This document shows positions 10,909 to 57,880 of a stretch of 64,000 bases of DNA, one piece after another. A model generated the notes under the pieces. That model made no database searches, was not told the DNA's origin, and was given only the letters and a program-made list of their open reading frames with translations. Positions within the stretch are counted from its first letter, which is position 1, and each line of letters starts with the position of its first letter. Location: assembly GCA_043807255.1 (NCBI GenBank), contig JAZDGD010000004.1, positions 14,057 through 78,056 of the forward strand, written 5' to 3'. The stretch comes from Patescibacteria group bacterium (GTDB taxonomy: Bacteria > Patescibacteriota > Minisyncoccia > RBG-13-40-8-A). Both the position numbers and the translations under genes were made by a program.

Positions 10909-11469
10909 CTAATTTAGAACGATAAGTTCTTCTTGTGGGTTGACTCTGATAACCCCATCAAAGCCATCGGAATCAATTTGTGACGCGTATTTATGGAAAA
11001 CTTCATAATCGTGAGCAGGGTCATTTTCCGAAAAAAATGTAAGTCCTTTTTCTCGTCGCGTTTTCATTTCTTTTATTTTTGCGATTTCGGGCTTTTTCCA
11101 AAACCATAAATTTACGGTCTCGAGTGGCGTTATAAAGTAAAGAGCTATAATGTGAGTGGCACCATACTGCCTCAGCTTGCTAATGAAAAGTTTTCGTTCT
11201 TTACTTTCGACTGTCCAGGAGTCAAGAATCAACTTAAGTCCTGTTTGCGTTGATAGTTTGCGTCTCAACAGGCGATACATGATTTCTTGGGCAAAGTACA
11301 GCATTCCAGTATGGGGGTCTGTATCAATCGCACCAAATAAACGTAAAAGGATTTCATCGCGACTTACCGCAGACAGTCCGGGTTGATTTTCGATAATACG
11401 TTTGGCATAATAACTTTTACCAGATCCCCGTTGGCCAATTAGTAAATAAACGGTGTTATCTTTTTTCAC
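10909..11469 (-). CDS. P-loop kinase (AAA_33 / zeta-toxin / polynucleotide-kinase-like)
   Basis: Walker A GQRGSGKS near the N-terminus, Walker B-like ILDSW; 186 aa. Confidence 0.5.
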   Translation of the reverse strand: MKKDNTVYLLIGQRGSGKSYYAKRIIENQPGLSAVSRDEILLRLFGAIDTDPHTGMLYFAQEIMYRLLRRKLSTQTGLKLILDSWTVESKERKLFISKLRQYGATHIIALYFITPLETVNLWFWKKPEIAKIKEMKTRREKGLTFFSENDPAHDYEVFHKYASQIDSDGFDGVIRVNPQEELIVLN

Positions 11470-11601
11470 AAAAACCTCCTCTTTTGCAATGTAATGAACT
11501 AGTTCGCATGATAGCTGTTATTTAAAGATTAGTCAAACATTTAAAAAACTCGGTTGCGATTAATCGCGCCGGTTTTTATTTTAATTTTTAAAACTTGACA
11601 A

Positions 11602-11632
11602 AATATATAGATATGCTATAATTATAATGTAG
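11602..11632 (+). promoter_or_regulatory. consensus sigma70-type promoter TTGACA-16-TGCTATAAT
   Basis: cttgacaaaatatatagatatgctataat lies upstream of the 11675 gene. Confidence 0.55.
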
Positions 11633-11674
11633 GACAACGGTGTTCTATAATTTCAAGAAAGGAGACCCATACGA

Positions 11675-12106
11675 ATGGGCGTACTGTCGGAACAACTTTT
11701 TAGGGTGGGACTGCTTTCAAAGCAACAACTTTGTAAGCAGCAGGCAGAGGAAATGTTGGTAGAAGAGCAAAACCAACAGACCAAATTTGCTCAATTTGCC
11801 CAAAAAGGTGCGAAAGGCGGATTCACGGAACTGGATCAGACCACGAGCATGCATGAATTCAAACTCGTCGCCAAACAGCTTTTGCTGAAGAATCCGTCCG
11901 AGATCCAGGTCATCATTCAAAAAGCACATCGCTTTAAGAATGCCGACCAGGGCAAGAAGTTCGTTTGGTTCTTTTATCAGGTACGGGACATTCTGAAGAG
12001 ATTGTCCGCTGAAAAACGCGAACAATTTCTAAACAGGGCATTCCGTCGATCGGGATCGACATTGGAAATCCCTAACGAGATTTCCGAAGAAGATTCCGAG
12101 GGCTAG
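11675..12106 (+). CDS. hypothetical protein (143 aa), GC-elevated, with a strong SD (aaaggaga)
   Basis: ORF with RBS; GC visibly higher than its surroundings; followed by a 7-codon mini-ORF with its own RBS and a terminator. Confidence 0.5.
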   Translation: MGVLSEQLFRVGLLSKQQLCKQQAEEMLVEEQNQQTKFAQFAQKGAKGGFTELDQTTSMHEFKLVAKQLLLKNPSEIQVIIQKAHRFKNADQGKKFVWFFYQVRDILKRLSAEKREQFLNRAFRRSGSTLEIPNEISEEDSEG

Positions 12107-22949: not shown

Positions 22950-23582
22950 ATGGAAAGAAACAAATATCCTGGAAAATTTATTGTCTTTGAAGGATTGGAC
23001 GGCTCTGGGCAATCAACCCAAGCCAAACTTTTACAGAGCCTTGTAAAGAATTGGCCCGCTAATGTTGTGCTCACAAAAGAACCAACGCCCGATTCTGACG
23101 CAGGTAAATTGATCAAAGAAATACTTAGGGGTAAGCAAAAAATGTCTCCGCGAAAATTCCAAAAATTATTTGCGAGAGACAGAGAGATTCATCTGGCGGA
23201 AGTAATTATTCCGCACCTACAACATGGAGATGTTGTCATTTCGGACAGATATTTTTTATCTTCTTTGGCTTTTGGCGCTACGGACGGAGTGGATCTAAAT
23301 TTCCTGATTGATCTAAACGAAAATAAATTAAATCCGGAGCTAATTAAGCCCGATTTGATGTTTTTCTTAGACGTGCGTCCCGAAATAGCAATTTCTAGAA
23401 TCGAGGCCAGAAACAAAGGGAAAGAACATTTCGAAAAACTGGAGAAATTGACGACTGCTCTATCGCACTATAAGTGTTTGATCAGAGATAGATATAATGA
23501 AACCCATGTTGTTGATGGAGAAAAATCAATTCCGGATATTTCTAAGGAAATTCAACATATCGTCGCAGATATGTTGAAATGA
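22950..23582 (+). CDS. tmk: thymidylate kinase
   Basis: FIVFEGLDGSGQST P-loop, DRY motif, lid region. Confidence 0.85.
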   Translation: MERNKYPGKFIVFEGLDGSGQSTQAKLLQSLVKNWPANVVLTKEPTPDSDAGKLIKEILRGKQKMSPRKFQKLFARDREIHLAEVIIPHLQHGDVVISDRYFLSSLAFGATDGVDLNFLIDLNENKLNPELIKPDLMFFLDVRPEIAISRIEARNKGKEHFEKLEKLTTALSHYKCLIRDRYNETHVVDGEKSIPDISKEIQHIVADMLK

Positions 23583-32091: not shown

Positions 32092-32125
32092 GTAATGATT
32101 TTAGCATTTTTAAAAAAGAAATGAA

Positions 32126-32235
32126 AACACGAAAATTACCGAGGTCAGACCTCGGACATAATATAATATGTACGGAGAACAGTTCTCCGTACATCTATAT
32201 TGTCTCCATTTTCGTACGGCCGTGAAAAAAGGGAG
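32126..32235 (+). repeat. intergenic module R1 (CCGAGGTCAGACCTCGG hairpin, TACGGAGAACAGTTCTCCGTA hairpin and a GTACGGCCGTG hairpin); a 110-bp identical copy is at 32867-32976
   Basis: direct repeat read by eye. Confidence 0.85.
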
Positions 32236-32258
32236 ACACGGGAAAACAAAAAAAGTAC

Positions 32259-32287
32259 TTGATTAATAATTTTTATAAGTGTATATT
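32259..32287 (+). promoter_or_regulatory. promoter TTGATT-17-TATATT for the small-gene pair
   Basis: spacing and hexamers read by eye. Confidence 0.45.
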
Positions 32288-32331
32288 GTAATTGAATTCG
32301 AGAATCGAATTTTAAAAAAGAGGAGGAAACG

Positions 32332-32604
32332 ATGGAAAACAAAAAAGTTAACGCATGGAAAGTTCCTTTTAAGGCCGTTGGTGTCGCATTGAGAGTAACG
32401 TGGATTTTGCCAGCCTTCTCGCTGTGTTTAATGTTTTACATGATATGTCTGTATCCACAAGAATTTCGTGACGGCGTCAAACACAAAGATGGTTTAATGT
32501 GGTTCTTATCTTACATTATAATCTGTATTGCCTGGATTATTTTTGCAGTGATTCATAAATACAGAAATCGGCGAAACAAGAAGAAATTTCAAAAAATTAA
32601 TTAA
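32332..32604 (+). CDS. small membrane protein (90 aa, 2 TM helices, basic tail), strong SD
   Basis: aaaagaggaggaaacgATG; hydrophobic helices. Confidence 0.5.
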   Translation: MENKKVNAWKVPFKAVGVALRVTWILPAFSLCLMFYMICLYPQEFRDGVKHKDGLMWFLSYIIICIAWIIFAVIHKYRNRRNKKKFQKIN

Positions 32605-32615
32605 GGAGGTACGAA

Positions 32616-32804
32616 ATGATAGTGATTGTGTACTTTATGGAAGGATCGTTACTTAAAAGGATTGAAGGCACTTTTAAGGACAACTTAGAAGCGGCGGATT
32701 ATTTGGTAAAATGTGGGTGGCATCGGTCTCAAGTTAATCGATGGGAGTCCGGGGGCGATAACCATCATGCACGCATTATTCATGTGGATCCGCCTCGTCA
32801 GTAA
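32616..32804 (+). CDS. small hypothetical protein (62 aa), strong SD
   Basis: ttaaggaggtacgaaATG; followed by a terminator at 32806-32866. Confidence 0.45.
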   Translation: MIVIVYFMEGSLLKRIEGTFKDNLEAADYLVKCGWHRSQVNRWESGGDNHHARIIHVDPPRQ

Positions 32805-32866
32805 AAAGGAGGGCGTTTGCACGTGGGTCGGTAACCATCCCGGCCCTTTTTTATTTTTTTTACACA

Positions 32867-33030
32867 AACACGAAAATTACCGAGGTCAGACCTCGGACAT
32901 AATATAATATGTACGGAGAACAGTTCTCCGTACATCTATATTGTCTCCATTTTCGTACGGCCGTGAAAAAAGGGAAACACAAAAAACAACCCAAAAAAAC
33001 TTGACAGGATTTGTGGACGTGCTATAATGG
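32867..33030 (+). repeat. intergenic module R2 (copy of R1 plus the promoter block)
   Basis: 32867-32976 matches 32126-32235; 32940-33030 matches 33400-33490. Confidence 0.85.
33001..33029 (+). promoter_or_regulatory. consensus promoter TTGACA-17-TGCTATAAT
   Basis: ttgacaggatttgtggacgtgctataat. Confidence 0.6.
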
Positions 33031-33034
33031 TAGC

Positions 33035-33320
33035 ATACGAGAAGGTGGGGGGTGCCAAGCAAAAATTGCCCTTTGGCTGCAACACCCCCTTGTTCTTTCC
33101 TTAAGACAACGAACAAATTTTATAGATATGCTATACTGTGGGGAGAGTTATTAATACTGGAGACGGCGAACCGTCAAAAGGCGAGATACTCTCTCCACCC
33201 CAATCTGATCCTTATGTCTTTATGAAATAGGGGACACATAAACGGACGCCAAAAGTGGCTTCTAGTATTCCGTCCCCGCCCCGGCGAGAACTACATTATA
33301 CCCTCGCCGGTATTTTTTTG
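33035..33320 (+). ncRNA. candidate sRNA/leader transcript of unknown family, ending in a terminator
   Basis: driven by the consensus promoter; no RBS-bearing ORF; internal hairpins (GGGGGGTG/CACCCCC; GGGGAGAG/CUCUCCCC); terminator ccggcgag...ctcgccgg plus T-run at 33283-33320. Confidence 0.3.
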
Positions 33321-33376
33321 TTTTAAATTTACCCCATAGCAATTTTGTTAAAAATTTGATATGGAGTTTGCATTAG

Positions 33377-33490
33377 ACATACGGAGAACTGTTCTCCGTA
33401 TGTCTCTCTTTTTGTACGGCCGTGAAAAAAGGGAAACACAAAAAACAACCCAAAAAAACTCAGACAGGATTTGTGGACGTGCTATAATGA
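33377..33490 (+). repeat. intergenic module R3 (partial copy, including the promoter block)
   Basis: shares tacggagaactgttctccgta, gtacggccgtgaaaaaagggaaacacaaaaaacaacccaaaaaaac and ggatttgtggacgtgctataatg. Confidence 0.8.
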
Positions 33491-33494
33491 TAAA

Positions 33495-33722
33495 CATTAA
33501 GAGAATCGATCTTTAATTTTGACTCAATTGAAACGATGGGAAGACTTATGCCTCCTTTGGGCCAGACAAACGAATGAGACCTGACGGTCCGTTTGTACCC
33601 ATTGTTTCTAGTTGATAGAGTTTGTGCGAAGCAGGCCCAATCCGGCGCAAAGGAATGCGCTTCTGTTCGCTAGACTCGACGGGACATTCGAAAGGATGTC
33701 CCGTTTATTTTTTTAAAATTTG
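33495..33722 (+). ncRNA. candidate sRNA or r-protein leader of unknown family, ending in a terminator just upstream of rpmF
   Basis: promoter (C)AGACA-17-TGCTATAAT at 33461-33489; no credible ORF; hairpins; terminator gggacattcgaaaggatgtccc plus T-run at 33689-33722. Confidence 0.3.
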
Positions 33723-36258: not shown

Positions 36259-36954
36259 ATGAAGTTCAACATAATCACAATCTTTCCAGATATATTTCAA
36301 AGCTATTTTAACGAGAGCATTATTAAGCGTGCGCAGGAAACCCTAGTCCGACCGGACGGGTCTAGGAAGAAATTGGTGAATATTAAAATTCATAATTTAA
36401 GAGATTATACGGACGATAAAAGAAATACCGTTGATGACCATCCTTACGGTGGTGGGCCGGGAATGGTAATGATGGTGGAACCAATATTTAAAGCAATTAA
36501 AAAGTTGTCCCGCGTAGCGGGATCCCGCTCTGCGGGAAAGAATACCAAGATTATTCTCTTTTCCACTCGTGGGAAAAAGTTTGACCAGGCGATGGCGAAA
36601 AGATTTTCAAAATTAGATAATTTAATTATGATTTGTGGACGATACGAAGGAGTCGACGAAAGAGTGGCAAAGTATATTGCTGATGAAGAAGTTTCAATCG
36701 GGGACTATGTTTTAACTGGCGGAGAAATTCCGGCAATGATTGTCGTGGACGCGGTGAGTCGCCTGATTCCTGGCGTTTTAGGAAAACACGAATCACTCGA
36801 AGAAATTAAAGGTAGTTATCCTGTTTACACCCGCCCGCACAAATTTTCTCCAAAGAGAAAATTCAAGCGGGTAAATCCCGAAACCTGGAGGGTCCCAGAA
36901 GTTTTGTTGTCCGGCGATCACAAAAAAATAAACGAGTGGAGAAAGGGAAAATAA
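36259..36954 (+). CDS. trmD: tRNA (guanine37-N1)-methyltransferase (the ORF-track start at 36079 spans the hairpin cluster; [13 protein letters not shown] at 36259 is the likely start)
   Basis: [10 protein letters not shown], ...[12 protein letters not shown]..., C-terminal HKKINEWR; contains two GC-rich in-frame hairpin segments (36331-36357 and 36511-36545). Confidence 0.85.
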
Positions 36955-36956
36955 AT
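36916..36956 (+). repeat. junction repeat gatcacaaaaaaataaaYgagtggagRRgggaaaataaat (copy 1, the native trmD 3' end)
   Basis: further copies at 38407-38444 (3' end of ddl) and a partial one at 39645-39670. Confidence 0.8.
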
Positions 36957-36972
36957 GTTATAATACATATAT

Positions 36973-37359
36973 ATGGAATCCATAGAAAAAAGTAAGAGAA
37001 AAATACAGAAGAACGAAAATAATCCCGCTCCGTGTATTGAAAAAAAGTGTTCTGCTTGTTGCGATCCGGTAAAGGTAGACAGATTTTTTCAGGATGATGA
37101 AATACCCGTCGACGAAAATGGTAATAAAATTTGGAAGGAATGGCCAGAACTATTAATTCCAGAAGACGAAATCGATATAACAAAACTAAAATCTTACGAC
37201 TGTTTAAAATTAGATAAATCAACGGGAAAATGCCGAGATTACGAAAAAAGACCACCTATTTGTAAAAGATGTAGTTGTATTAAAAAAGATTCGAAAGAAA
37301 GCATTGACGAACAACACAAAAAATTAGCAAAGAAAAAATTTATAGTTATTAAAACATAA
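36973..37359 (+). CDS. Cys-rich hypothetical protein (C-x4-C-x2-CC, YkgJ/UPF0153-like putative Fe-S or Zn binding)
   Basis: CIEKKCSACCD plus additional C-terminal Cys. Confidence 0.4.
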   Translation: MESIEKSKRKIQKNENNPAPCIEKKCSACCDPVKVDRFFQDDEIPVDENGNKIWKEWPELLIPEDEIDITKLKSYDCLKLDKSTGKCRDYEKRPPICKRCSCIKKDSKESIDEQHKKLAKKKFIVIKT

Positions 37360-37360
37360 T

Positions 37361-38422
37361 ATGGAAAAAATAAATGTTGGAATTTTTTTCGGCGGGAAAT
37401 CAGTAGAGCATGAAATATCGCTTATTTCAGCGAAAAATATTATAAATGTCATTGATAAAAATAAATACAATATAATTCCTATTGGCATAAATAAAAATGG
37501 CGAATTTCTTTTTTACGACGGAGAAGGTTTTATTTTAAATGAAGATGATCCTAAAAAAGTACATCTAAATTCAAATGGCGTGCCTATAACTTTTTCTTTT
37601 GGGTCAAAACAAGAACTCGTTGGAGTTGCAGATAAAAATTTAAAAATAAAAATAGACGTTGCGTTCCCTGTTCTGCATGGCAGTTTTGGAGAAGACGGAA
37701 CAATCCAAGGTCTTTTCGAAATGGCAAGCATTCCCTATGTTGGCACTGGAGTTTTGGGGTCTTCAATCGGGATGAACAAAGACATCGCCAAAAGATTATT
37801 AGAAAATTCGGGAGTCAAAACAGCAAAATTTTTAGTTTTCGATGTATCGGAAAAAGAAAAAATTGATTTTTCTGACATTGTTTCTCGATTAAAATTGCCG
37901 TTTTTCATTAAACCAACCAACCTTGGTTCGTCAGTGGGCGTTCATAAAATAGAAAATGAAAAAGATTTTCATGAAAAAATAAATGAAGTTTTTAAATTGT
38001 GCGACAGAATTATGTGCGAAGAGATGATCATTGGCAGAGAAATTGAATGTTCGGTTTTGGGTGTTGAAAATCCAATTGCCTCTTTGTCGGGAGAAATTAT
38101 AGTAAGTCGAGGATTTTATTCTTATGAGGCAAAATATTTAGACGAAAATAATGCACAATTAAAAGCTCCAGCAGACTTATCTAAAGAAATAGTGCAAAAA
38201 GTTCAAGAAACAGCAATCAAGATTTTTAAATTATTAGAATGCAGAGGAATGGCACGGGTGGACGGATTTGTTAAAGAAAACGGAGATTATATTTTTAATG
38301 AAATTAATACCATCCCTGGTTTTACAAAGATTAGTATGTATCCCAAACTTTGGGAAATAAGCAAGATTCCCCAAACAGAATTAGTTGATAAACTGATTCA
38401 AATGGCGATCACAAAAAAATAA
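37361..38422 (+). CDS. ddl: D-alanine--D-alanine ligase
   Basis: ATP-grasp fold; GGKSVEHEISL near the N-terminus; ...EINTIPGFT... Confidence 0.9.
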   Translation: MEKINVGIFFGGKSVEHEISLISAKNIINVIDKNKYNIIPIGINKNGEFLFYDGEGFILNEDDPKKVHLNSNGVPITFSFGSKQELVGVADKNLKIKIDVAFPVLHGSFGEDGTIQGLFEMASIPYVGTGVLGSSIGMNKDIAKRLLENSGVKTAKFLVFDVSEKEKIDFSDIVSRLKLPFFIKPTNLGSSVGVHKIENEKDFHEKINEVFKLCDRIMCEEMIIGREIECSVLGVENPIASLSGEIIVSRGFYSYEAKYLDENNAQLKAPADLSKEIVQKVQETAIKIFKLLECRGMARVDGFVKENGDYIFNEINTIPGFTKISMYPKLWEISKIPQTELVDKLIQMAITKK

Positions 38423-38446
38423 ATGAGTGGAGGGGAAAATAAATTC

Positions 38447-39640
38447 ATGAATAGATTCGAAGAAATTCCACAACAGAAACCAGCGGAAGTAAACAAAAAA
38501 GAAAACGAAAATAAGGCAGATTTGAAATTGGAAAAATTAAAATCAGTTTGTGATGACCCAAAATTTCAAGAACTTTTACCAGAATACATAGAAAACGAAA
38601 AAGACAAAAAGTTGGAAGTAAACGAACCGTTGGTCCATGGCACAGGATCTTTTGCATTAAAAAGAATAATCGAACAAGGATTTGTTCCGCAAAGAGGCGG
38701 AGAATTATTGCATGGAGAAAAAGTTACTCACCACACTAATGCCGAAAAAGAAGAAGTTAATCCGATATCTCTTACAACCGAAGATGAAACTGGCGAAATG
38801 ATTGGCCATTGGTACGCTCTATTGGCAACAAAAGGATCACAACTTCAATTTAATTCCGATAAATTTCTAGATAAAAGATTGACTCGAATATTAAACGAAG
38901 TTTATGGAGGCACGGACACTGCTACGGAATTAAGGTTGAAGGGAGAAATTGATTTGTTAATTAAAACCAAGGAACCAAATTTAACTCAGGCCGTAGAGAT
39001 TTCTAAACAAGAATTAATTAAAGATTTCGAACAAAAATTAATCGATCGAAGCAGAGAGGGTGCAAATGTTTTTGATGTTGATTTTGTAAAAAATAAAATT
39101 GAAAAACTGAATCTATTGTTGGACCAAAAAATAAAAGACGCTGACCAAGTCGAAGAAATTTTAAGAGAAAATAATTTATTAGAAAGTTTTCGTCATTATT
39201 TTGCGCCGAGAGGGGAAAGGTTGCCAATATGTAAAACCAGAGAAATTACGCAAAGATTACTTGAAAATAGGCAAGAAGATTCTTGGGTTTACGATGAAAT
39301 TAGAAAAATAAGAGATATTTTACAGGGCAAGGTTGATAATTACAATAATCTTTCAGAACAAGAGCGCAAAGAAATCGATAATCAATTTCCTTGTTTTATA
39401 ACCATCGAAAGTGAAAAGCTTGAGTTAAAAGATAAGTCTGAGCGCATGCACGACAAAGTAAGAGAACTTGTAAGTGATAGCGTGATTGAAAAAGAAAGAA
39501 TAAAAGAAATTCAAGTTCCAAAATCAAAGATTGAAGAAGTGCAAAAATGGTTAAAAGAATTCAAATTAGAAAATGTTCGTATGATCCCTTTTGAGTATTA
39601 CGAAATGAGGCAAGTCATAGAACATTCTCCTGCTGAATAG
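38447..39640 (+). CDS. hypothetical acidic Lys/Glu-rich protein (about 398 aa from ATG 38447)
   Basis: strong SD gagtggaggggaaaataaattcATG; no recognisable motif. Confidence 0.45.
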   Translation: MNRFEEIPQQKPAEVNKKENENKADLKLEKLKSVCDDPKFQELLPEYIENEKDKKLEVNEPLVHGTGSFALKRIIEQGFVPQRGGELLHGEKVTHHTNAEKEEVNPISLTTEDETGEMIGHWYALLATKGSQLQFNSDKFLDKRLTRILNEVYGGTDTATELRLKGEIDLLIKTKEPNLTQAVEISKQELIKDFEQKLIDRSREGANVFDVDFVKNKIEKLNLLLDQKIKDADQVEEILRENNLLESFRHYFAPRGERLPICKTREITQRLLENRQEDSWVYDEIRKIRDILQGKVDNYNNLSEQERKEIDNQFPCFITIESEKLELKDKSERMHDKVRELVSDSVIEKERIKEIQVPKSKIEEVQKWLKEFKLENVRMIPFEYYEMRQVIEHSPAE

Positions 39641-39673
39641 CTATAATAAACGAGTGGAGGGGAAAATAGATTT

Positions 39674-40180
39674 ATGAAAATCAATACATTGATTTACGAT
39701 GTGACATATCCGTCAAATATTGGTGAGATTATACGTACATCGCATGTTCTCGGAGAAGGAACCAGCGATTTATATTTTTACGATCCAAGAAATATTTTAG
39801 ACAAAGAGAAAGATGAAATTGAAAATTTTTCTTGTAATATCGCAAGCCTGAAGGAATTTAAAATTTTGAATTCAGACATAAATGATTTTCTAAAAAAATA
39901 TAATGGCAGAAAAATAGCCACTCTAATATCTGACAAATCAACAAAATTAAAAGACTTTAATTTTGAAGAAAACGATTTGATATTATTTGGTAACGAAAGG
40001 ACTGGATTGCCCGATGAAATAATTGAACTTTGTGACGAGAAAATAATTATTCCGATGAAGGGATCTGTCTATAATAAAACAGATCATCATCTAGGAACGC
40101 CAATAAAGGGAATTGGAGAATATCCAACATTAAAAGTTTCAATTGCCCACGCTATCGTATTGTATGGGGCACTAGAATAA
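39674..40180 (+). CDS. SPOUT (SpoU/TrmH-like) RNA 2'-O-methyltransferase
   Basis: motif 1 NIGEIIRTSHVLG, motif 2 LFGNERTGL, motif 3 IIIPM...TLKVSIAHAIVLY. Confidence 0.65.
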   Translation: MKINTLIYDVTYPSNIGEIIRTSHVLGEGTSDLYFYDPRNILDKEKDEIENFSCNIASLKEFKILNSDINDFLKKYNGRKIATLISDKSTKLKDFNFEENDLILFGNERTGLPDEIIELCDEKIIIPMKGSVYNKTDHHLGTPIKGIGEYPTLKVSIAHAIVLYGALE

Positions 40181-40214: not shown

Positions 40215-40480
40215 GGATAGTACATAATCATTAATTAAATTTTTATGTAAAAGAGCGATAACAATAAGCGTACTTTAAAACAGAGTTTAGTTTTGGAACG
40301 TAGTTCAAAAATTGAGCTCTGTTTTTTAATCAGAAAAACATGTACACAATATTCTAATATGTTTTTATGTAATTTACAGTAGTTTGTGTGAGTTTGTTAG
40401 ATCAAATCGAATCTTTTATGGTTATCCTGATACAATCAGAAGTAGGCAGGCCGTTTCGGCCAATCTACTTCTGAATCTTT

Positions 40481-41940
40481 ATTGAGAGTTTGATCCTAGC
40501 TCAGGACGAACGCTGGCGGCGTGGATTAGGCATGCAAGTCGAATGGGTTTAGACCCATGGCGAACGAGTTAGTAAGACGTAGGTACATCCCTCTGACTCG
40601 GACATAACTTGCCGAAAGGCAAGATAATTTCCGATGGTCTCGAAAGAGTAAAGTCTTATCGCAAGATAAGATGGTGAGAGAGTGGCCTGCGCCCTATCAG
40701 CTAGTTGGTGAGGTAATGGCTCACCAAGGCTATGACGGGTAGGGGGCGTGAGAGCGTGTTCCCCAACGATGGCACTGAGATACGGGCCCTACTCCTACGG
40801 GAGGCTGCAGTCGAGAATCTTCCACAATGGACGAAAGTCTGATGGAGCGACGCCGCGTGAATGAAGAAGTCCTTCGGGATGTAAAGTTCTTTTCTAGAGG
40901 AGCAATTTTTGAGTGTACTCTAGGAATAAGGGGTTGCTAAACTCGTGCCAGCAGCAGCGGTAATACGAGTACCCCAAGCGTTGTCCGGAATTACTGGGCG
41001 TAAAGCGTCTGTAGGGTGTTTGATACGTCTTCTGTTAAATTTCGATGCTCAACATCGGAGCTGCAGGGGAAACGGTCAGACTAGAGAGTGTGAGAGGCTG
41101 ATGGAACTTAAGGAGTAGGGGTGAAATCCGTTGATACCTTAGGGAATACCAAAGGCGAAGGCATTTGGCTGGTGCATTTCTGACCCTGAGAGACGAAAGC
41201 GTGGGGAGCAAAAAGGATTAGATACCCTTGTAGTCCACGCCCTAAACTATGAATACTAGTTGTCTGAAGTATCGACCCTTCAGGTGACGAAGCTAACGCG
41301 TTAAGTATTCCGCCTGGGAAGTACGGTCGCAAGACTAAAACTCAAAGGAATAGACGGGAGCTTGCACAAGCGGTGGAGCGTCTGGTTTAATTCGACGGTA
41401 AGCGAAGAACCTTACCAGGGTTTGAAATTCTAGTGAAAACCTGATGAAAGTCGGGTCTTCTACAAGGACACTAGAACAGGTGCTGCATGGTTGTCGTCAG
41501 CTTGTGGCGTGAGTTGCTCCGTTAATTCGGGTAACAAGCGCAACCCCTGTCGTCTGTTATAAGTGTCAGACGAGACTGCCTCGTGATACGAGGAGGAAGG
41601 TAGGGATGACGCCAAATCAGCATGGCCCTTTGATACCCTGGGCAACACAGGCGCTACAATGGCCGAGACAATGGGTCGCCAAATCGTAAGATGGAGCCAA
41701 TCCCATCAAACTCGGTCCCAGTTCGGATTGGGGTCTGCAATTCGACCCCATGAAGTTGGAATCGCTAGTAATCGCAGATCAGCTACGCTGCGGTGAATAC
41801 GTTCTCAAGCTTTGTACTCACCGCCTGTCACACCAGAGAAGCCGGGAGTACCTGACGTGCCACGATTCGTGGTCCTAAGGTAAATTCGGTGACTAGGGTG
41901 AAGTCATAACAAGGCATCCGTAGGGGAACCTGTGGATGGA
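40481..41940 (+). rRNA. rrs: 16S rRNA (about 1460 nt); the gene ends ...GGGGAACCTGTGGATGGA and the canonical 3' tail GATCACCTCCTTA is not present
   Basis: AGAGTTTGATCCTAGCTCAG at the 5' end; universal blocks (GTGCCAGCAGCAGCGGTAATAC, GCATGGTTGTCGTCAGC, GTCATAACAAGG...); leader and trailer complementarity (TTATCCTG / CAGGATAA) brackets the mature gene. Confidence 0.9.
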
Positions 41941-42186
41941 CAATATTTTTACTTAGTTGATAAAATTTCTAGGTAAAGTCGATTATCTTGCATTGCAGGA
42001 TAAAGCAAAAAAGTTTTTTAATTGTTTGTACTAAACAAACAGTAAGTATCGGGAGAACCATAAAAGATTTGATAATAAAAAAACGAGATTTAATCTCGTT
42101 TTTTTATTATATGCTTGCGTTTATTATTATTTTAGCTGTATAATATAAATAGTATTTTGATAATAATTAATAGTGAATAAAATATT

Positions 42187-42372
42187 ATGGCGGATATAAT
42201 AACCGACAATCCTGTTGCTCAAATTGCTTATTGCGTTAAGTGTAGGGCAAAGCAAGAAATGAAAGACGCAAAAGAAGTTAGAATGAAAGGCAAGGGAGGT
42301 GAAAGGCGCGCCTTGAAAGGTGTTTGCCCAGTTTGTGGAACTGGAATGTTTAGAATTTTAGGTAAGGCATAA
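42187..42372 (+). CDS. small zinc-ribbon protein (61 aa, CxxC...CxxC)
   Basis: CVKCRAK...CPVCGTGM; lies in the 16S-tRNA spacer after the hairpin aaaaaaacgagatttaatctcgttttttt; no SD. Confidence 0.35.
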   Translation: MADIITDNPVAQIAYCVKCRAKQEMKDAKEVRMKGKGGERRALKGVCPVCGTGMFRILGKA

Positions 42373-42450: not shown

Positions 42451-42524
42451 GGGCGTATAGCTCAGTTGGCTAGAGCGCGTCACTGATAATGACGAGGTCC
42501 ATGGTTCGAGTCCATGTACGCCCA
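42451..42524 (+). tRNA. tRNA-Ile (anticodon GAU); CCA not encoded
   Basis: gggcgta...ctGATaa...ggttcgagtcc...tacgccca cloverleaf. Confidence 0.85.
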
Positions 42525-42532
42525 TTTTTATC

Positions 42533-42603
42533 GGGCCTGTAGCTTAGTGGTAGAGCTCCCGATTTGCATTCGGGGGACGGGAGTTCGATTCTCCCCAGGT
42601 CCA
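42533..42603 (+). tRNA. tRNA-Ala (anticodon UGC) with the G3:U70 identity pair; CCA not encoded
   Basis: gggcctg...ttTGCat...gagttcgattctc...caggtcca. Confidence 0.85.
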
Positions 42604-42626
42604 TTGTAATAATTAACAATAAAAAC

Positions 42627-42890: not shown

Positions 42891-42936
42891 AATAGAATAT
42901 AAAAAAAGAGGCAAAGGCCTCTTTTTTTATGCTCAT

Positions 42937-43002
42937 AATCTTACGAGGTTTAACCTCGTAAGATTTCCTCTCCGATTTTATAAACATCTCCCGCGCTTTG
43001 GA
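42937..43002 (+). repeat. left 66-bp direct repeat, a degenerate duplicate of the murC 3' end plus the palindromic element (attL-like)
   Basis: aatcttacgaggtttaacctcgtaagatttcctctccgattttataaacatctcccgcgctttgga compared with 43926-43991 (about 8 mismatches); the reverse frame encodes QSAGDVYKIGEEILRG*, as does the murC C-terminus. Confidence 0.8.
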
Positions 43003-43003
43003 A

Positions 43004-43032
43004 AATATAAAAATCTGCATACGTTGACAGAT
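43004..43032 (+). promoter_or_regulatory. perfect consensus promoter TTGACA-17-TATAAT driving the inserted gene
   Basis: ttgacagattttttgtttaggcgtataat. Confidence 0.65.
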
Positions 43033-43196
43033 TTTTTGTTTAGGCGTATAATGTAATAAGATTAAATTGTTCTCTAAACAGATAAATAGATTCTACCTGC
43101 AAATATCCAATATGGCGAACCCACGCCTTTGGCGGGGCCACGCCGTATTGGTTCCGTGCCAGACATTTTTGTCTGAGCAAAGAGGAGGAACTGTCC

Positions 43197-43868
43197 ATGA
43201 AAAATCGTGGAACTGTCCGTCTCGCGACACCGGGTCAAATCAAGGATTTGATCTCGGCTCTGGCGCAGGCCATTCCCGCGAATCTGACCTTTACCCAGGC
43301 CAGTTACGGAATCGGCCACAAGAAAGAATTGGCGAAAAAAGTCGGAGAATTTTTCCGCAATTCTTTTATTGAAGCCGTGGAAGATGGGCGAGCGAGTCTT
43401 TTCCCGAGGTGGAAAACTATCGTCGTCGGCGCCTATCAGTCAACTGAAGTTTGGATTGAAGTTCTGTCTGGTGCCGGTTTCCGAATGGGCCTGGTAATCA
43501 GGGACCTCTTGAGTAAAACCAAGAAATTCCAAGACCGGTCCCTCGTAAGCTTTGCCAGGGCGACTGGAGCCGAACTGGGCTTTACGGAGTTGTTTGGGAC
43601 AACTGAACTTATCGCCCGAATCAGGGAGTTCGGTGGAGAACCCTGCAATTCAGATGATGCCCCGGCCCTACGCCAGGCTTATACCGAACAACCCGACGGA
43701 GAATGTCTTTATGTGGTTGTTGAGCCGATTTGCGGTTCGGACGGTCGTATCTGGATTTATGAATTGGTTAGCAGTATCGGCATGCTGTGTATTGACGGCA
43801 ACCATGCCGATCCTGGCATTTATTGGTCTCCCGACTATTCCTTCGTTTTTCGTATCTTCGGCAAGTAG
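43197..43868 (+). CDS. GC-rich (about 55%) hypothetical protein of 223 aa, the cargo of the cassette inserted at the murC 3' end
   Basis: strong SD aaagaggagga; compositional outlier (several overlapping open frames on both strands are typical of high GC); terminator gccccatacagattcgtctgtgtggggc plus T-run at 43876-43918. Confidence 0.6.
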   Translation: MKNRGTVRLATPGQIKDLISALAQAIPANLTFTQASYGIGHKKELAKKVGEFFRNSFIEAVEDGRASLFPRWKTIVVGAYQSTEVWIEVLSGAGFRMGLVIRDLLSKTKKFQDRSLVSFARATGAELGFTELFGTTELIARIREFGGEPCNSDDAPALRQAYTEQPDGECLYVVVEPICGSDGRIWIYELVSSIGMLCIDGNHADPGIYWSPDYSFVFRIFGK

Positions 43869-43925
43869 AATTTTTCGCCCCATACAGATTCGTCTGTGTG
43901 GGGCATCTTTATTTTTTTCATCATA

Positions 43926-43991
43926 AATCTTACGAGGTTTAGCCTCGTAAGATTTCTTCTCCGATTTTGTAAACATCTCCAGCGCCTTGGA
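43926..43991 (+). repeat. right 66-bp direct repeat (the functional murC 3' end; attR-like)
   Basis: see the left repeat. Confidence 0.8.
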
Positions 43992-45240: not shown

Positions 45241-45351
45241 GTTTAAATCTTATCATTTTAAATTAATAAAACAAAATTATTGACAACAATACAATTACTT
45301 GTTATCTTGTAACCAGAACCTTTAAGGTTACTTTTTGTAAGGAGGATGATT

Positions 45352-45585
45352 GTGAAATACAATTCACTAAAGGCAACGAGGGCGGTGACTGGGGTAGAAC
45401 TCGATTTTATTGGGCATGCTCAGGGCCTTCTTCCGATTTTACAGCAAGAGCTTGTTGAAATCAACGAACAAATTAAAAAATTAGGGAGAAGAGCAGGGAT
45501 CAAAAGACTTCTTCGAAGTCTTGCCATTGATGAACTAATCAAGGATCTCAAGGGGGCCATTAAACGGCACGGAGGGAAGGTCTGA
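45352..45585 (+). CDS. small hypothetical protein (about 77 aa), GC-elevated, strong SD, GTG start
   Basis: gtaaggaggatgattGTG; promoter TTGACA-17-TATCTT at 45289-45317; terminator ggacgggggccaaccctcgtccg plus T-run. Confidence 0.4.
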   Translation: MKYNSLKATRAVTGVELDFIGHAQGLLPILQQELVEINEQIKKLGRRAGIKRLLRSLAIDELIKDLKGAIKRHGGKV

Positions 45586-45685
45586 CGTGGAATACGAAAC
45601 GGACGGGGGCCAACCCTCGTCCGTATTTTTTTATTCTAAAATTGACTTGTTTCTCTTTTTGTACGGCCGCGTAAAAAGAGAAATA

Positions 45686-47096: not shown

Positions 47097-47220
47097 TTAA
47101 TTCTATCATTATAATATTTTTTAGACAAAATCCCGATGTAGGGTCGGGATAAAAAAAAGAGGGGAGACGCAACAACGATTGTTCGTTGTTTTGTCTCCCC
47201 ACGCTCCGGCCGTTCGTTAT

Positions 47221-49450: not shown

Positions 49451-49479
49451 TTGACACGACTATTTTACGAGAATATAAT
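49451..49479 (+). promoter_or_regulatory. perfect consensus promoter TTGACA-17-TATAAT
   Basis: ttgacacgactattttacgagaatataat; the ATG lies 8 nt downstream (leaderless). Confidence 0.55.
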
Positions 49480-49487
49480 TTGTCTAT

Positions 49488-49658
49488 ATGCGAGAAACAA
49501 AATGCGATTTATGCAAAAAGAAAATTTCTGAAGAACCGATAATCGCTGGTTTGGGATTTTTTCCAAAAGCCGAATTGTGCGAAAAGTGTGGTGCACCAAT
49601 TTTGAATTTTTTAAAGAAACATAAATTCATAAAAACCGAAAAGAAAAAGAAAAGATAA
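49488..49658 (+). CDS. small zinc-ribbon-like protein (56 aa; CDLC...CEKC), leaderless
   Basis: MRETKCDLCKK...ELCEKCGAPI; not in the ORF track because it is under 60 aa. Confidence 0.35.
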   Translation: MRETKCDLCKKKISEEPIIAGLGFFPKAELCEKCGAPILNFLKKHKFIKTEKKKKR

Positions 49659-49987: not shown

Positions 49988-50636
49988 TGAATATGTTTCG
50001 ACATCAAGTAAAAAAAACAATAAAAGAAAAAGCATTTTTTATCGAGTAAAAAAGGTTAAAAATAAAAGCAATTAAAGTCTAAGTAGTAATGTCTATAAAT
50101 TGCCAGCTAAATTAAGCAGGTTAGTAAGGGTATATGGTGGATGCCTTGACACTAGAAGGCGAAGAAGGACGTGGCGTAACTGCGATAAGTCTCGGGGAGG
50201 TGTGTAGCAACCTATGATCCGGGAATCTCCGAATGAGGAAACTCAATTCCAATAAACTGGAATTATCCCGATTGAAATCGGGAAGCGAACTCGGCGAAGT
50301 AAAACATTTCAGTAGCCGAAGGAATAGAAAACAAAAGTAATTCCCCAAGTAGTGGCGAGCGAAAAGGGAACAGCCCAAACCCGATCCTAGAACCGCTTTG
50401 CGGTTCGGATTTAGGGGGTAGTAAGATAATAACGTCGAGAGAAATCTCGGGAAAGTGGATACAAAACTAAGACTTCCTTAGTTGAAGGAACTGGAAAGTT
50501 CTACCAAAGAAGGTAATAGTCCTGTAAACGAAAAGCCTATTATACTACTATTATTGAATATTGAGTACCGCGATAACATATAATCTAGCGGGAATCATCC
50601 TGAACTATCTAGGAAAGGCTAAATACTTCTAGTGAT

Positions 50637-50675
<39 letters not shown>

Positions 50676-52732
50676 GCCCGATAAGGGCGTTGAAATAGTA
50701 CCTGAAATCATATACTTACAAAGAGTCGGAGTCCGACCCGCAAGGGGTTAGGATGACGGCGTGCTTTTTGCAGAACGAACCAACGAGTTTACCGCAGACT
50801 GTTGTCTAAGTCCGTATAGGACGGAGGCATAGGGAAACCGAGTGTTAATAGCGCGAAATTATAACAGTATGCGTAAGACCCGAAGCCAGGTGAGCTACCC
50901 ATGGCCAGGATGAACTCTGATGAAAATCAGAGGGAGGTCCGGACCCACCAGCCGTGCAATACTGGGGGATGAGTTGTGGGTTGGAGTGAAAAGCTAATCG
51001 AACCTGGTAATAGCTGGTTCTCCTCGAAATATGTTTAGGCATAGCCTCTTGTTTTTTCTCCTTAGGGGTAGAGCACTAAATTGGTTGAGGTGGCGCAAGC
51101 CTACTCACTAAATTAAACTCCGAATACTAAGGCAGATAGCAAGGGAGTAAGACTGTGGGGGCTAAGCTCCATGGTCAAAAGGGAAATAGCCCAGATCGTC
51201 GTCTAAGGTCCCAAAACTAAATTAAGTGGTAAAAGAAGTGTTTCGTCTTTGACAGATGGGATGTTGGCTTAGAAGTAGCCATCATTTAAAGAGTGTGTAA
51301 CAACTCACCATTCTATTCTCGATTTATCGAGAGCTATGACAAGACGCGCTGAAAATGTAACGGGGCTCAAATTTAGTACCGAAGACACGGATTTTCAAAT
51401 TAATTTTTGAAAGTGGTAGAGGAGCATTTTTTCAACAGTGAAGCTAATTCGTGAGAGTTGGTGGAGTTGAAAGAAGAGAGAATGTTGGTATGAGTAACCG
51501 CAAGTCCGATGAGAAATCGGACCATCGAAAGCCCGAGGTTTCCTTGGCAATGTAAATCAGCCAAGGGTTAGGCGGATCTAAGGCAATCCCGAAAGGGGTA
51601 GCTGATGTTCAATCGGTTAATATTCCGATCCTTCTGTATTTTTCTATGGAGTGACGGAGTTTAGTAGTTAGAGCAGATTATTGGATTTCTGTTTATATAT
51701 TAAGAAGCCAGATTAGGCAAATCCGGTCTGGAATACTTCAAGATACGTATAAAGGTTCAACTTCGGTTGGATTTATTCTAATGAGCAAGCTTCCAAGAAA
51801 AACTTCTATGGTTAGAAATATAGAATCCGTACTTAAACTGACACAGGTGGGCGAGGCGAGGAGCCTAAGATGAACGGGTTAACCTTCGTTAAGGAACTCG
51901 GCAAAACAACGGCCGTAAGTTCGCAATAAGGCCTTCCCCGACCCGCAAGGGATTAGGGGACGCAGCTAAAGATTCCTAGCGACTGTTTACTAAAAACACA
52001 GGTCCCTGCTAACTCGTAAGAGGATGTATAGGGGCTGACACTTGACCAGTGCTGGAAGGTTAATAGTGGGGGTGTATGTCTCGCTTTGCGAGATGTATGC
52101 TCACTGCTTGAAGCCCCAGTGAACGTCGGCGATAACTATAATCGTCCTAAGGTACCGAAATTCCTTGGCATGTAAGTTATGTCCTGCAGGAAAAGTGTAA
52201 CGACTGGGAAACTGTCTCAACGAAGAGCCCGGTGAAAATGCAATGTCAGTGAAGATGCTGACTACCCGCGACAAGACGAAAAGACCCCAGGAGCTTTACT
52301 ATATCTTGGTATTGTTTTAATGATTTTAATGCGTAGCGTAGACGGTAGGATTTGAAGGTTGCCTCTCGGGGCGACTGGATCCGACAATGAAACACCGTTC
52401 TTTGAAATTGTTAAAACTAACCCCTTCTATATGAAGAGGAACAGTGCCAGGTGGGTAGTTTTGGTGGGGCGCTAGCCTCCTAAAGAGTAACGGAGGCGTT
52501 TAAAGGTTGACTAGCTCCGGATGGAAATCGGAGCGATAGTGTAAGAGCAAAAGTCAGCTTTACTGCAAGACTGACAGGTCGCGCAGTTACGAAAGTAGAA
52601 TCTAGTGAACCGACCCTGGTTAATAGAATCGGGGGAGATCATCGGATAAAAGCTACCCTGGGGATAACAGGCTGGTAGACGCTAAGAGTCCATATCGACG
52701 CGTCTGTTCGGCACCTCGATGTCGGCTCATCT

Positions 52733-52763
<31 letters not shown>

Positions 52764-52784
52764 TGGCTGTTCGCCAATTAAAGA

Positions 52785-52824
<40 letters not shown>

Positions 52825-52872
52825 ACTCCTATCTGTCGTGGGCGTAGATACTTGAGAGACTTTGTCCCTAGT

Positions 52873-53637: not shown

Positions 53638-53949
53638 ACGAGAGGACCGGGATGAACAAACCTCTGGTGTACCAGCTGTCCTGCCAAGGGCACTGCTGGG
53701 TAGCTAAGTTTGGCAGGGATAAACGCTGAAAGCATATAAGCGTGAAACCCTTCTCGAGATTAGGTATCATAGATTGGTTGAAGATTACGACCTTGATAGG
53801 CTTCAGGTGTAAGTACCGAGAGGTATTGAGCCGAGAAGTACTAATAAATCATTTGCCTGTTTAATTAGGCTGGCAATTTGTGGACGTTATTTAGATTTAT
53901 TTATTTTAGTTGATATCGAAAAATTGTGATTCAAAATTATAACCATTAT

Positions 53950-54056
53950 AAGGGAGCTATACCTGGAGTGCTCCACCTGTTCCCATTCCGAACACAGAAG
54001 TGAAATCTTTCAGGGCCGATGATAGCGGATTACCGCAAAAGTAGGTGACCCTCCTA
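53950..54056 (+). rRNA. rrf: 5S rRNA
   Basis: CCACCTGTTCCCATTCCGAACACAGAAGT...GCCGATGATAGCGG; terminator gctccgcaactgcgggg plus T-run at 54081-54117. Confidence 0.8.
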
Positions 54057-54139
54057 TAATAATCACAATTAGCAAATAAGATGAAAGCTCCGCAACTGCG
54101 GGGTTTTTGTTTTTTTAAAAATTTGTTATACTATAATCA

Positions 54140-56379: not shown

Positions 56380-56678
56380 AAAAATTGTTTTACTTATGCT
56401 TATTAAAAGACCTTTATGTACATAGTATAGCATAGATAAATAAATTGCAAAAGTTTATTTATCATGTCGACACGTTTTAGGCAAGGACATTTTGCCTGAC
56501 GAGAGGACAGTCTTTTAAGGGGCTTCGGCCCCTTTTTTATTCTTATACTGTATTTTGTACGATCGTTTTATTTACAGTATAAATTATTAATTTGTTTGAC
56601 TTTTTGTCTAGTCTTGCTACAATCTAACCAAGGAGGCACATAGCTCCTTAAATCTAAATAAAAAAAAGGAAGGAAGAG

Positions 56679-57071
56679 ATGTTTAAAGATTTGACGGAAG
56701 TGTTGAGCAAGCTAAATCAACTGGTCAAAAAGATCAAAGAAGACGCCATTGTTCAGGTCAAATTTGGCCCAACAATCATATTTGATCTAAACGAAAAATA
56801 CTACGTCAGTGTAAGCATTGAATTTCGAGGGATATCGGATTTTAGCATGAACCATCTTGTAGAAATGGCACAGTTCTATAAGGTCACAAGCACCACGGAT
56901 TGGGCGATATCGATTGATGGATCTGTGAGCATTTCGCTTTCAAGTGTTGTCACTGTTAGAGAAAATTATTTACGACTCTATATTTCGCGTACCAAGTATA
57001 TGGATTTTCTGAAGAAACACAATAAGTCGGATGTCGTGGCGACTTACACGGATGCGGAGCTTAGAATGTAG
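56679..57071 (+). CDS. hypothetical protein (130 aa) with its own promoter TTGACT-16-TGCTACAAT
   Basis: promoter at 56595-56624; SD ggaaggaagag; GC-elevated. Confidence 0.45.
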   Translation: MFKDLTEVLSKLNQLVKKIKEDAIVQVKFGPTIIFDLNEKYYVSVSIEFRGISDFSMNHLVEMAQFYKVTSTTDWAISIDGSVSISLSSVVTVRENYLRLYISRTKYMDFLKKHNKSDVVATYTDAELRM

Positions 57072-57192
57072 AACCCAAGCACTCTTTGTCCAAATGATCT
57101 CGGGCCCCCCGTGGGTCCCGTTTTTTATTTGGTATTGACTTTTTCCAAGGGACGTGCTATACTTACAACATAGTTCAAATAAGGAGGATGCG

Positions 57193-57342
57193 ATGAATAT
57201 CAAGTCATTGCTGGTCGGAGTCGTGTTGGTGGTGTTGAGTAAGTGGTTCGGCGGATTCTTTTTCGTCGCCGGTATCGCTCTCATCCTTTCCTCGGCGGGA
57301 AAGACAAGGTTCACCAGGAACAGTTCTTTGTCAAATTTCTGA
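57193..57342 (+). CDS. small membrane peptide (49 aa, one TM helix)
   Basis: promoter TTGACT-17-TATACT (ggacgtgctatact); SD aaggagga; hydrophobic core LLVGVVLVVL...FFFVAGIALIL. Confidence 0.45.
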   Translation: MNIKSLLVGVVLVVLSKWFGGFFFVAGIALILSSAGKTRFTRNSSLSNF

Positions 57343-57449
57343 AACCCAGAAACTTCGGCACATCATGGGGCTCGCTTCGCGAGCCTCTCTTTTTATTTTG
57401 AATTGACATTTCACCCCTTTTTGCTACAATCTAATCAGAGGAGAGAGAC

Positions 57450-57620
57450 ATGAAAAACTTGAACTTTGGCAAGTCGAACAAGCAAATCGGCAAAAGGAGG
57501 AACGTTCAGCCCAAGCCAACGGCAAAACAAGTCAAAAGAGCCAGAAGGCAAAAAGCCATTAAGGCAAAAGAAGTCAGATTCGGGAAGAGCAAAGACTATA
57601 GTTATTTGTTTGAATTTTAA
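57450..57620 (+). CDS. small highly basic peptide (56 aa, Lys/Arg-rich)
   Basis: promoter TTGACA-16-TGCTACAAT at 57404-57433; SD gaggagagaga; not in the ORF track because it is under 60 aa. Confidence 0.4.
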   Translation: MKNLNFGKSNKQIGKRRNVQPKPTAKQVKRARRQKAIKAKEVRFGKSKDYSYLFEF

Positions 57621-57634
57621 ACAAGGAGGAGAAG

Positions 57635-57880
57635 ATGAAAACTGGTGTTGCGTTTTTGTTTCGCGGTGAACGAGAAGAAACCGAGAAGGCGAAAAAACTC
57701 TTAGATGAGGCAAAAATTCCATACGAGGAAAAAGAACAAGGACCCGAAGACGGAGGACCGATACTCCATGTTCTTTGTAGGACAAGAGAATACTACGGGT
57801 TGGAGGAAATAGAAACCCTCATCCGCGGGTGGAAAGAATTCCAATCCGTTTCTACTCCCGATAACATGTACAACGAATAA
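57635..57880 (+). CDS. hypothetical protein (81 aa, acidic)
   Basis: SD acaaggaggagaag; terminator gggggcttcggcccc plus T-run at 57882-57905. Confidence 0.45.
   Translation: MKTGVAFLFRGEREETEKAKKLLDEAKIPYEEKEQGPEDGGPILHVLCRTREYYGLEEIETLIRGWKEFQSVSTPDNMYNE

Follow-up and report, generated by a model that had tools for sequence, protein, structure and literature searches.

Start-site selection in bacteria is, in the textbook account, made through the interaction of the Shine-Dalgarno (SD) sequence with the anti-SD of the 16S ribosomal RNA (rRNA). Several lineages are described as departing from this scheme, and the closest of them to the case presented here are the Parcubacteria: according to a recent survey, the anti-SD motif CCTCCT is detected in only 48% of them, SD helices are presumably not formed in those that lack it, and the loss is linked to lineages lacking uL1 (Tsurumaki et al. 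2022, RNA 28:1041, PMC9297842). Ribosomes without an anti-SD are likewise described for some Flavobacteriia (Chryseobacterium, Elizabethkingia, Riemerella, Blattabacterium), Mycoplasma and Candidatus Carsonella (Lim et al. 2012, cited in Amin et al. 2018, PMC6107228), in which the loss is reported to be phylogenetically clustered and accompanied neither by enriched SD motifs nor by a compensating variant SD/anti-SD pair. A third situation is that of the 'SD-blind' ribosomes of the Bacteroidia, where the anti-SD is present and sequestered by bS21/bS18/bS6, and where rpsU of Flavobacterium has an exceptional strong SD with a defined autoregulatory role (Jha et al. 2021, PMC7797042; PMC13000453). 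Here we describe a 64-kb window of DNA, i.e., the whole stretch that was analysed (64,000 nucleotides, positions 14,057 to 78,056 of contig JAZDGD010000004.1, assembly GCA_043807255.1), which belongs to a metagenome-assembled genome (MAG) of an ultra-small, Candidatus Portnoybacteria-like member of the Parcubacteria and whose 16S rRNA gene has lost the anti-SD, a loss common to its whole clade.

The Parcubacteria subgroup of the above survey belongs to the same phylum-level group and shows the same phenomenon as the window, and since this loss was published in 2022 (PMC9297842) the headline is not new. In its available portion, the survey scores the motif only as present or absent; the window adds the sequence of the tail, the stem and hairpin of the trailer, the leaderless architecture of the genes and the SD motifs of the cassettes. 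Judged against the available text of the cited papers, what appears to be new is the conserved replacement tail with its trailer architecture, the dominance of a leaderless geometry among native genes and the confinement of canonical SD modules to accessory cassettes. Further, whereas the survey connects the loss with lineages lacking uL1, the 23S rRNA of the window keeps its L1-stalk helices. The Flavobacteriia, Mycoplasma and Carsonella share with the window 16S tails devoid of CCUCC while belonging to phyla unrelated to it, and the available text of PMC6107228 makes no mention, as far as was found, of an SD subset restricted to cassettes in these organisms. The likeness to the Bacteroidia lies in genome-wide SD-independent initiation, A-rich leaders and a small number of strong-SD genes; the difference is that in the window the 16S gene itself is without the canonical anti-SD that Bacteroidia retain. 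It also differs from the ribosomes generated by MazF-type toxins, in which an encoded anti-SD is subsequently removed, in that the gene in the window never encodes one.

In the following, coordinates are those of the window, and L-numbers (L003, L025, L116 etc.) are labels of compared loci and contigs. The 16S rRNA gene (40478..41951, + strand) is complete and free of insertions, matching Rfam RF00177 over model positions 1-1533 with 1389 bits. Helix 45 with the adjoining GGA (41915..41940, + strand), where universal alignability ends according to cmscan, is intact and aligned at high posterior probability. Beyond it the gene parts from the model: the Rfam alignment sets ...GUAGGGGAACCUGUGGAUGGA|CAAUAUUUUUA against ...GGAUCACCUCCUUU, and after helix 45 (...GUAGGGGAACCUGUGGAUGG) the gene continues with ACAAUAUUUUUA where the model has AUCACCUCCUUU. 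In the same alignment an AU-rich tail, CAAUAUUUUUACUUAG (41941..41956, + strand), stands at the position of AUCACCUCCUUA and fills the slot in which GAUCACCUCCUUA is expected. No CCTCC occurs on the + strand downstream of 41951 before 45972, and GATCACCTCCTT has no match near the rRNA operon even with two mismatches allowed. As the length and position of the tail are canonical, the anti-SD has been substituted by another sequence rather than deleted or cut off, and the claim of the initial annotation that the 16S gene lacks an anti-SD is borne out by a gene that spans the full Rfam model. A CCUCC at 54050, near the 3' end of the 5S rRNA, was set aside, being apparently part of helix I as judged by eye from the sequence.

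The same replacement is found throughout the clade. A scan of a species-representative genome collection, using a helix-44/45 pattern that ignores the tail, yielded nine relatives with 81-97% 16S identity, among them two MAGs labelled Candidatus Portnoybacteria, one Paceibacterota and one complete 626-kb chromosome; all nine lack CCUCC and have AU-rich tails. A metagenome scan with the exact helix-45 sequence of the clade as the query gave 46 contigs with 83-99% 16S identity, again without CCUCC in any of the 46. The clade sequences recovered (9 + 46) therefore point, by the absence of CCUCC in 55/55 and by the common tail AAWUAUUUUUACUUA, to an inherited replacement and not to truncation or misassembly. 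Within this tail, 31 of 43 distinct trailers of relatives share an unchanged UUUUUACUUA, and the only one of the 43 to contain CCUCC is that of L056, a distant non-relative from the genome scan. Among the unrelated hits of that scan (archaeal, verrucomicrobial, bdellovibrio and other), TCACCUCC is kept in almost all, the exception being L062 with TCGACTCC. Hence, the ancestor of the clade would have exchanged AUCACCUCCUUA for A(A/C)AAUAUUUUUA, with position and length unchanged, and on ribosomes so altered an SD:anti-SD helix could not be expected to form.

The flanks of the gene mark a genuine precursor. The 5' strand of a pre-16S processing stem in the leader (40407..40433, + strand) pairs with a 3' strand in the trailer (42046..42072, + strand), 105 nt past helix 45. 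In the 17 sequences with both flanks, 92.7% of the cells of this 27-29 bp stem are paired, as against about 44% with the partner strand slid, and covariation is seen as changes on both sides in 13 of 29 pairs, with one position occurring as G-C, A-U and U-A. The initial annotation had likewise read leader/trailer complementarity as the sign of a genuine precursor rather than of truncation, and this much stands; the partner it named was wrong. The two strings in question, TTATCCTG at 40422-40429 and CAGGATAA at 41996-42003, are both present. Shuffling, however, produces a lone 8-nt complement like this in 59% of cases; the pair therefore carries no weight alone and is superseded by the covarying stem. 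Between helix 45 and the stem, the approximately 105 nt are devoid of CCUCC and comprise the conserved tail, a freely varying hairpin and a conserved GUCGAU block. The hairpin comes right after the tail (ACUUAG...CUAGGU, 41951..41974, + strand) and is recognised by comparison with relatives, being present with at least 5 bp in 30 of 36, in unrelated sequences, and missing in six; the block past it, AGUCGAUU (41977..41984, + strand), reads (A/G)GTCGAT in most relatives. Past the processing stem there is a terminator-like hairpin with a U-run (42077..42105, + strand), and a similar one is seen in L003, L014 and L022. A conserved AU-rich tail that is predicted to be single-stranded could be either kept in the mature RNA or the endonuclease site that makes its 3' end, and the mature 16S rRNA would be expected to end without an anti-SD.

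The native genes of the window begin in ways compatible with such ribosomes. Pfam confirms the identities of lysS, serS, an iscS-like gene, trxB, nusB, rpsP, trmD, ddl, rpoB, dnaE, murD and tmk, and, tmk excepted, the housekeeping genes have AT-rich upstream regions without an SD, as the initial annotation had stated. In place of an SD, -10-like hexamers peak at 6-9 nt before the ATG (13 of 48 hits, with the distance peak at 8 nt), and among extended TGnTAnAAT boxes 8 of 11 lie at that distance. This leaderless geometry, with a -10 element about 6-9 nt before the start, is found in at least 12 genes, and its best native example is an open reading frame (ORF) for a 56-aa zinc-finger protein with its start at 49488 (49451..49658, + strand; TTGACA-17-TATAAT-8 nt-ATG). 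Of the three genes previously called leaderless, this one is well supported and the other two, 47221 on the minus strand and 42187, are unconvincing, and at least ten more had been overlooked; predicted starts of this type include 4064 (- strand), 5937, 20610, 36973 and 54140. Additionally, 20 of 61 starts overlap the upstream gene or lie within 10 nt of its stop. Among 205 SD-negative genes from the window and the loci of relatives, positions -11..-2 consist of 45-56% A and about 10% G, and T occupies -1 in 62%; this T at -1 together with the A-rich, G-poor stretch may represent a Kozak-like preference of the clade. In the loci of relatives, the 27 ORFs that reach 100 aa are all without an SD core, as against a share of 17% with one in control loci with an anti-SD under the identical crude caller, while in a wider set of rRNA-flanking loci 6 of 158 genes carry one, where about 4 would arise by chance on our own estimate.

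These patterns suggest three routes by which native genes might be initiated: on leaderless messenger RNAs (mRNAs), where 6-9 nt separate the ATG from the end of a -10 box that is often extended; by translational coupling, for genes that start at most 10 nt away from the stop of the gene before them; and through A-rich, G-poor leaders with T preferred at -1. Actinobacteria, Deinococcus and haloarchaea are rich in leaderless mRNAs and have kept the anti-SD. As in these organisms, the -10 element in the window is placed for transcription to begin on the start codon or beside it, the transcription starts here being predicted from sequence alone. As a separate observation, a 93-nt inverted repeat (126-218 and 47006-47098, 90% complementary) endows lysS and murD with a common upstream element and with identical codons one to seven (VENLLQ), the GTG lying 8 nt after TAAAAT, which looks like a duplicated promoter/start module.

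Against this background stands a minority of genes with strong SD motifs. In the window, SD-core 5-mers at -20..-4 number 22 versus 1.95 expected, an 11-fold excess, and the SD-bearing genes amount to 8 by the strict test and 10-11 if those at 45352, 56679 and 38447 are added, out of about 60. That these are small, GC-elevated genes, as had been noticed earlier, holds in the window: the median GC content at third codon positions (GC3) is 0.41 in them versus 0.29 (Mann-Whitney p=7e-4), and they are shorter (p=0.015). Their -10 boxes lie 23-150 nt upstream of the start, and they are therefore leadered, presenting an ordinary promoter-leader-SD-ATG module unlike the native leaderless layout. Most encode small proteins without family assignment, the exceptions being an AAA_33 ATPase, a SpoU methylase and tmk; the SD-bearing genes of relatives include Fic, DHODH, an ABC transporter and ORFans. 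Located next to tRNA-Gln is a divergent SD-bearing pair (10909..12106), formed by the AAA_33 ATPase (10909-11469, - strand) and a conserved 143-aa protein (11675-12106, + strand). Thymidylate kinase, tmk (22950..23582, + strand), has the perfect SD AAAGGAGGA. A small SD-bearing ORF with its probable start at GTG 45352 (45346..45585, + strand) lies in a segment unaligned in L025, and a cluster of small, GC-elevated SD-bearing ORFs (56596..57880, + strand; 56679-57071 and 57635-57880) has repeated TTGAC-N17-TACAAT promoter modules. The homologous cluster in L116 carries an SD on 5 of 6 genes, and in the small-ORF clusters of L116 and L117 together strong SDs precede nearly all genes.

Synteny connects these genes with inserted DNA. 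The segments 32106-33718, 36945-40178, 42604-43930 and part of 45255-48597 are missing from the syntenic position in relatives, a comparison that does not extend to 10909/11675, tmk and the 56679 cluster. Of 12 genes located in such insertions 6 are SD-bearing, as against none of 10 in conserved syntenic segments (Fisher p=0.012). Islands with SD-bearing genes adjoin tRNA-Ala and tRNA-Gln. In the island at 32106..33718, missing in L003, two SD-bearing genes (32332-32604 and 32616-32804) are accompanied by a tandem unit of 741 nt and by two non-coding units that each run from a promoter to a terminator. A second segment (36945..40178), missing here in both L003 and L022, encodes a CxxCxxCC protein, ddl, the 38423/38447 ORF with an SD-like GGAGGGG, and a SpoU methylase (39674-40180) preceded by the same SD-like repeat. 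A cassette (42937..43991) missing in L025 bears the SD-bearing gene 43197-43868 (GC 0.51) under its own sigma-70-type promoter, TTGACA-17-TATAAT (43024-43052). Direct repeats of 66 nt lie on either side of this cassette (42937-43002, 43926-43991), and they copy the 3' end of a Mur-ligase-like gene next to it.

The protein encoded by the 43197 gene seemed to be an ORFan in a word-indexed search, which returned only itself, a status rejected by an exhaustive HMMER search that gave 1288 representatives. The family is thus large and unnamed, and ten representatives that were looked up had no informative name (one 'hypothetical protein'). [quoted passage not shown] By its sequence features, the family appears to turn up repeatedly in CPR-like genomes of low GC, in which its high GC makes it an 'alien'. 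More generally, the nearest homologues of the SD-bearing genes lie on other low-GC contigs (36-43% GC), some with CPR-like core genes. A phage origin was considered for these genes and rejected: no integrase, transposase or phage hits from Pfam or PHROG were obtained among them, PHROGs giving a generic ATPase/kinase for the AAA_33 ATPase and nothing for seven others, and a scan of viral contigs found no relatives of the 11675 family.

Several repeats occur in and around these segments. The 741-nt tandem unit is visible as 115 nt at 99% identity (32125-32239 and 32866-32980). The two non-coding units of the same island (33001-33310 and 33460-33715, + strand) open with near-identical promoter modules (…GACAGGATTTGTGGACGTGCTATAAT), each followed by a GC-rich, ORF-poor stretch and a terminator, and are candidate small RNAs with no Rfam match. 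Imperfect palindromes of the form TGTCTCC...GTACGGCCGTG...GGGAGACA lie at 32201, 32942, 33401 and 45648, in or beside two SD-bearing islands. The 34-nt repeat AATAAAYGAGTGGAGGGGAAAATARATTYATGAA (38418-38451 and 39645-39678) gives the 405-aa ORF and the SpoU methylase a shared SD-like start context, the true start of the former being probably 38447. Hairpin repeats with CGAGGT-N-ACCTCG and CGGAGGTGGAACCTCCG are apparently terminators and the source of some of the GGAGG/CCTCC counts.

Taken together, these observations are best explained by a clade-wide replacement of the anti-SD, with native genes initiated independently of SD pairing and SD-bearing genes residing in accessory cassettes or islands, and we regard this explanation as likely. 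The strong-AGGAGG minority would then be accessory units, each bringing an ordinary bacterial promoter, a short leader, an SD and an ATG along with a higher GC content that has not been ameliorated; they would probably be drawn from a mobile gene pool common to SD-using organisms, and their SD motifs would probably be inert in this cell. Of the three explanations offered by the initial annotation, the one that combines initiation without SD with imported SD genes is the best supported, by the clade-wide loss, the leaderless or coupled, A-rich architecture, the synteny and the 66-nt repeats, while its further suggestions that the imports are recent and come from a host are unproven. A number of points weigh against the favoured explanation. 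The islands show no integrase or other mobility gene, no donor of the SD-bearing genes could be identified by homologue searches, a perfect SD precedes tmk even though this is a core gene, the link of SD with GC3 is not reproduced in the rRNA-flanking loci of relatives (6 SD-bearing genes, p=0.2), and a simple rule was used to call the gene starts. Further, in the 11675 family a GGAG core is kept at SD spacing in 7/7 distinct orthologs with 55-100% identity (that of L118 being counted with its start re-read as TTG), including three close relatives in which flanking leader bases have changed and the core has not, and GC3 is elevated throughout; this persistence is unlike what is predicted for a decaying fossil. 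Together with the clusters of L116 and L117, it fits either repeated exchange with an SD-using pool or a function of the motif in cells devoid of the anti-SD. The latter possibility, that the SD motifs of accessory genes are functional here, being read by a protein or another RNA or kept on account of the cassettes also being expressed in SD-competent cells, would agree with the conserved GGAG despite the differing leaders and its one-position displacement in L111 relative to the window, with the nearly uniform strong SDs of the small-ORF clusters and with the 10-nt perfect AAGGAGGUGA in L113, whose other genes look leaderless. However, chance retention of the four bases in the close relatives has a probability of roughly 0.05-0.15 on our own estimate, the deeper orthologs may sit in hosts with an anti-SD as there is no 16S on those contigs, the 16S rRNA offers no CCUCC to be read, and un-ameliorated GC3 fits repeated recent transfer equally well. 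We consider such a function improbable. It is likewise doubtful that purifying selection maintains AGGAGG in a mobile pool of small genes with elevated GC in this clade; if it did, the SD would have to be read by something besides the 16S tail, or the cassettes would have to be expressed on a regular basis in SD-competent cells, be they other bacteria or hosts.

Other alternatives concern the ribosome itself. The U-rich tail AAUAUUUUUACUUA might serve as a substitute anti-SD that pairs with A-rich sequence upstream of starts, as would suit its position, its strong conservation across the trailers and the A-richness of leaders at -11..-5, and the pairing energy dips slightly where the window begins at -14..-10 (z between about -1.8 and -1.95 versus shuffled tails). 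Yet neither duplex energies, nor the positional profile, nor k-mer enrichment gave a specific signal: for window genes the mean is -2.79 kcal/mol with the real tail versus -3.25 +/- 0.40 with shuffled ones, 85% of which do as well; the mean energies of the profile over 205 clade genes are just about -1 kcal/mol; and AT-rich k-mers non-complementary to the tail are equally enriched. Moreover, leaderless mRNAs offer no upstream RNA for pairing, and the conservation of the tail could instead reflect a processing site, which leaves such a substitute pairing improbable. A second rRNA operon with an intact anti-SD, proposed earlier, could lie outside the window, the MAG being incomplete and the contig, at 97.8 kb, longer than the 64 kb covered. 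It is disfavoured by the single match that the tail-agnostic helix-44/45 pattern has in the complete 626-kb chromosome (OZ246412.1), which belongs to a relative whose 16S is 97% identical, by one match each in contigs of 523 and 541 kb (Ga0315277_10000002 and Ga0114930_10000003), by the occurrence of TCACCTCC among contigs with the helix 45 of the clade only in the distant non-relative L056, and by the lack of SDs in native genes; we consider it very improbable. That the tail is an artefact of assembly or annotation, or that the anti-SD is added in trans or post-transcriptionally, would have as its sole point the near-match GATCACCTCCTC at 14590-14601, the only match to GATCACCTCCTT in the window at one mismatch. 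This string falls in a non-coding structured stretch for which folding is stronger on the opposite strand (z -2.3 versus -1.3) and which is probably transcribed from there, being thus rejected as a trans source, since it would be the complement of another RNA; and the 55 independent assemblies with the same type of tail, as well as the covarying stem downstream of it, make an artefact next to negligible in likelihood. The earlier suggestion that the 3' end is supplied in an unusual way is hence unsupported. The stretch itself (14322-14612, probably - strand) is GC-rich, lies between tyrS and the next gene, and has loose RNase P-like motifs (GGUAAAGUCCC, GGUAAGGGCAAAAG, CGGCUUAUCACC), with no Rfam hit even at E<=10.

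Lineages whose rRNA gene has lost the anti-SD are natural experiments in SD-free translation, and the locus is a compact example in combining one rRNA operon, a conserved replacement tail, a precursor stem, native genes of leaderless or coupled layout and, as a contrast to these, foreign-looking genes with the canonical promoter-SD-ATG module. In practical terms, gene callers and expression designs that rely on the SD will misplace starts in such genomes, while the presence of an SD could cheaply mark accessory or transferred genes in Parcubacteria devoid of the anti-SD. The added value of the window lies in this anatomy and in the puzzle of SD persistence, and possibly in a protein encoded within the rRNA operon.

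This protein, of 61 aa, is a CxxC...CxxC zinc ribbon of the DUF5679 family (Pfam PF18930, E=7e-11), encoded between the 16S gene and tRNA-Ile (42187..42372, + strand), and a homologue is found at the same place in about 45 loci of relatives. A candidate identity as a ribosomal protein was rejected: the top hits among PDB sequences, the archaeal small-subunit zinc-ribbon proteins aS34 and S27ae, are not significant (E 0.5-0.75), and a weak single-sequence AlphaFold2 model (predicted local distance difference test score 63.5) gave no significant match with Foldseek. The literature on DUF5679, among the matches listed, concerned unrelated topics only (virophage/polintovirus elements). The protein may be ribosome-associated, and it is a possibility, if an improbable one, that it and the tail are parts of a replacement device for initiation or 30S maturation.

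Downstream of the DUF5679 gene, tRNA-Ile(GAU) and tRNA-Ala(UGC) are identified by ARAGORN and Rfam (42451..42603, + strand), whereas the 23S rRNA (50114..52868, + strand; Rfam) is separated from the 16S gene by about 8 kb with protein genes, and the 5S rRNA (53949..54057, + strand; Rfam) follows it. Between the 3' end of the 23S gene and the 5S gene lies a 760-nt insertion (52877-53637) with an ORF for a LAGLIDADG homing endonuclease (53029-53508, + strand); the insertion is missing in L025, where its flanks are contiguous.

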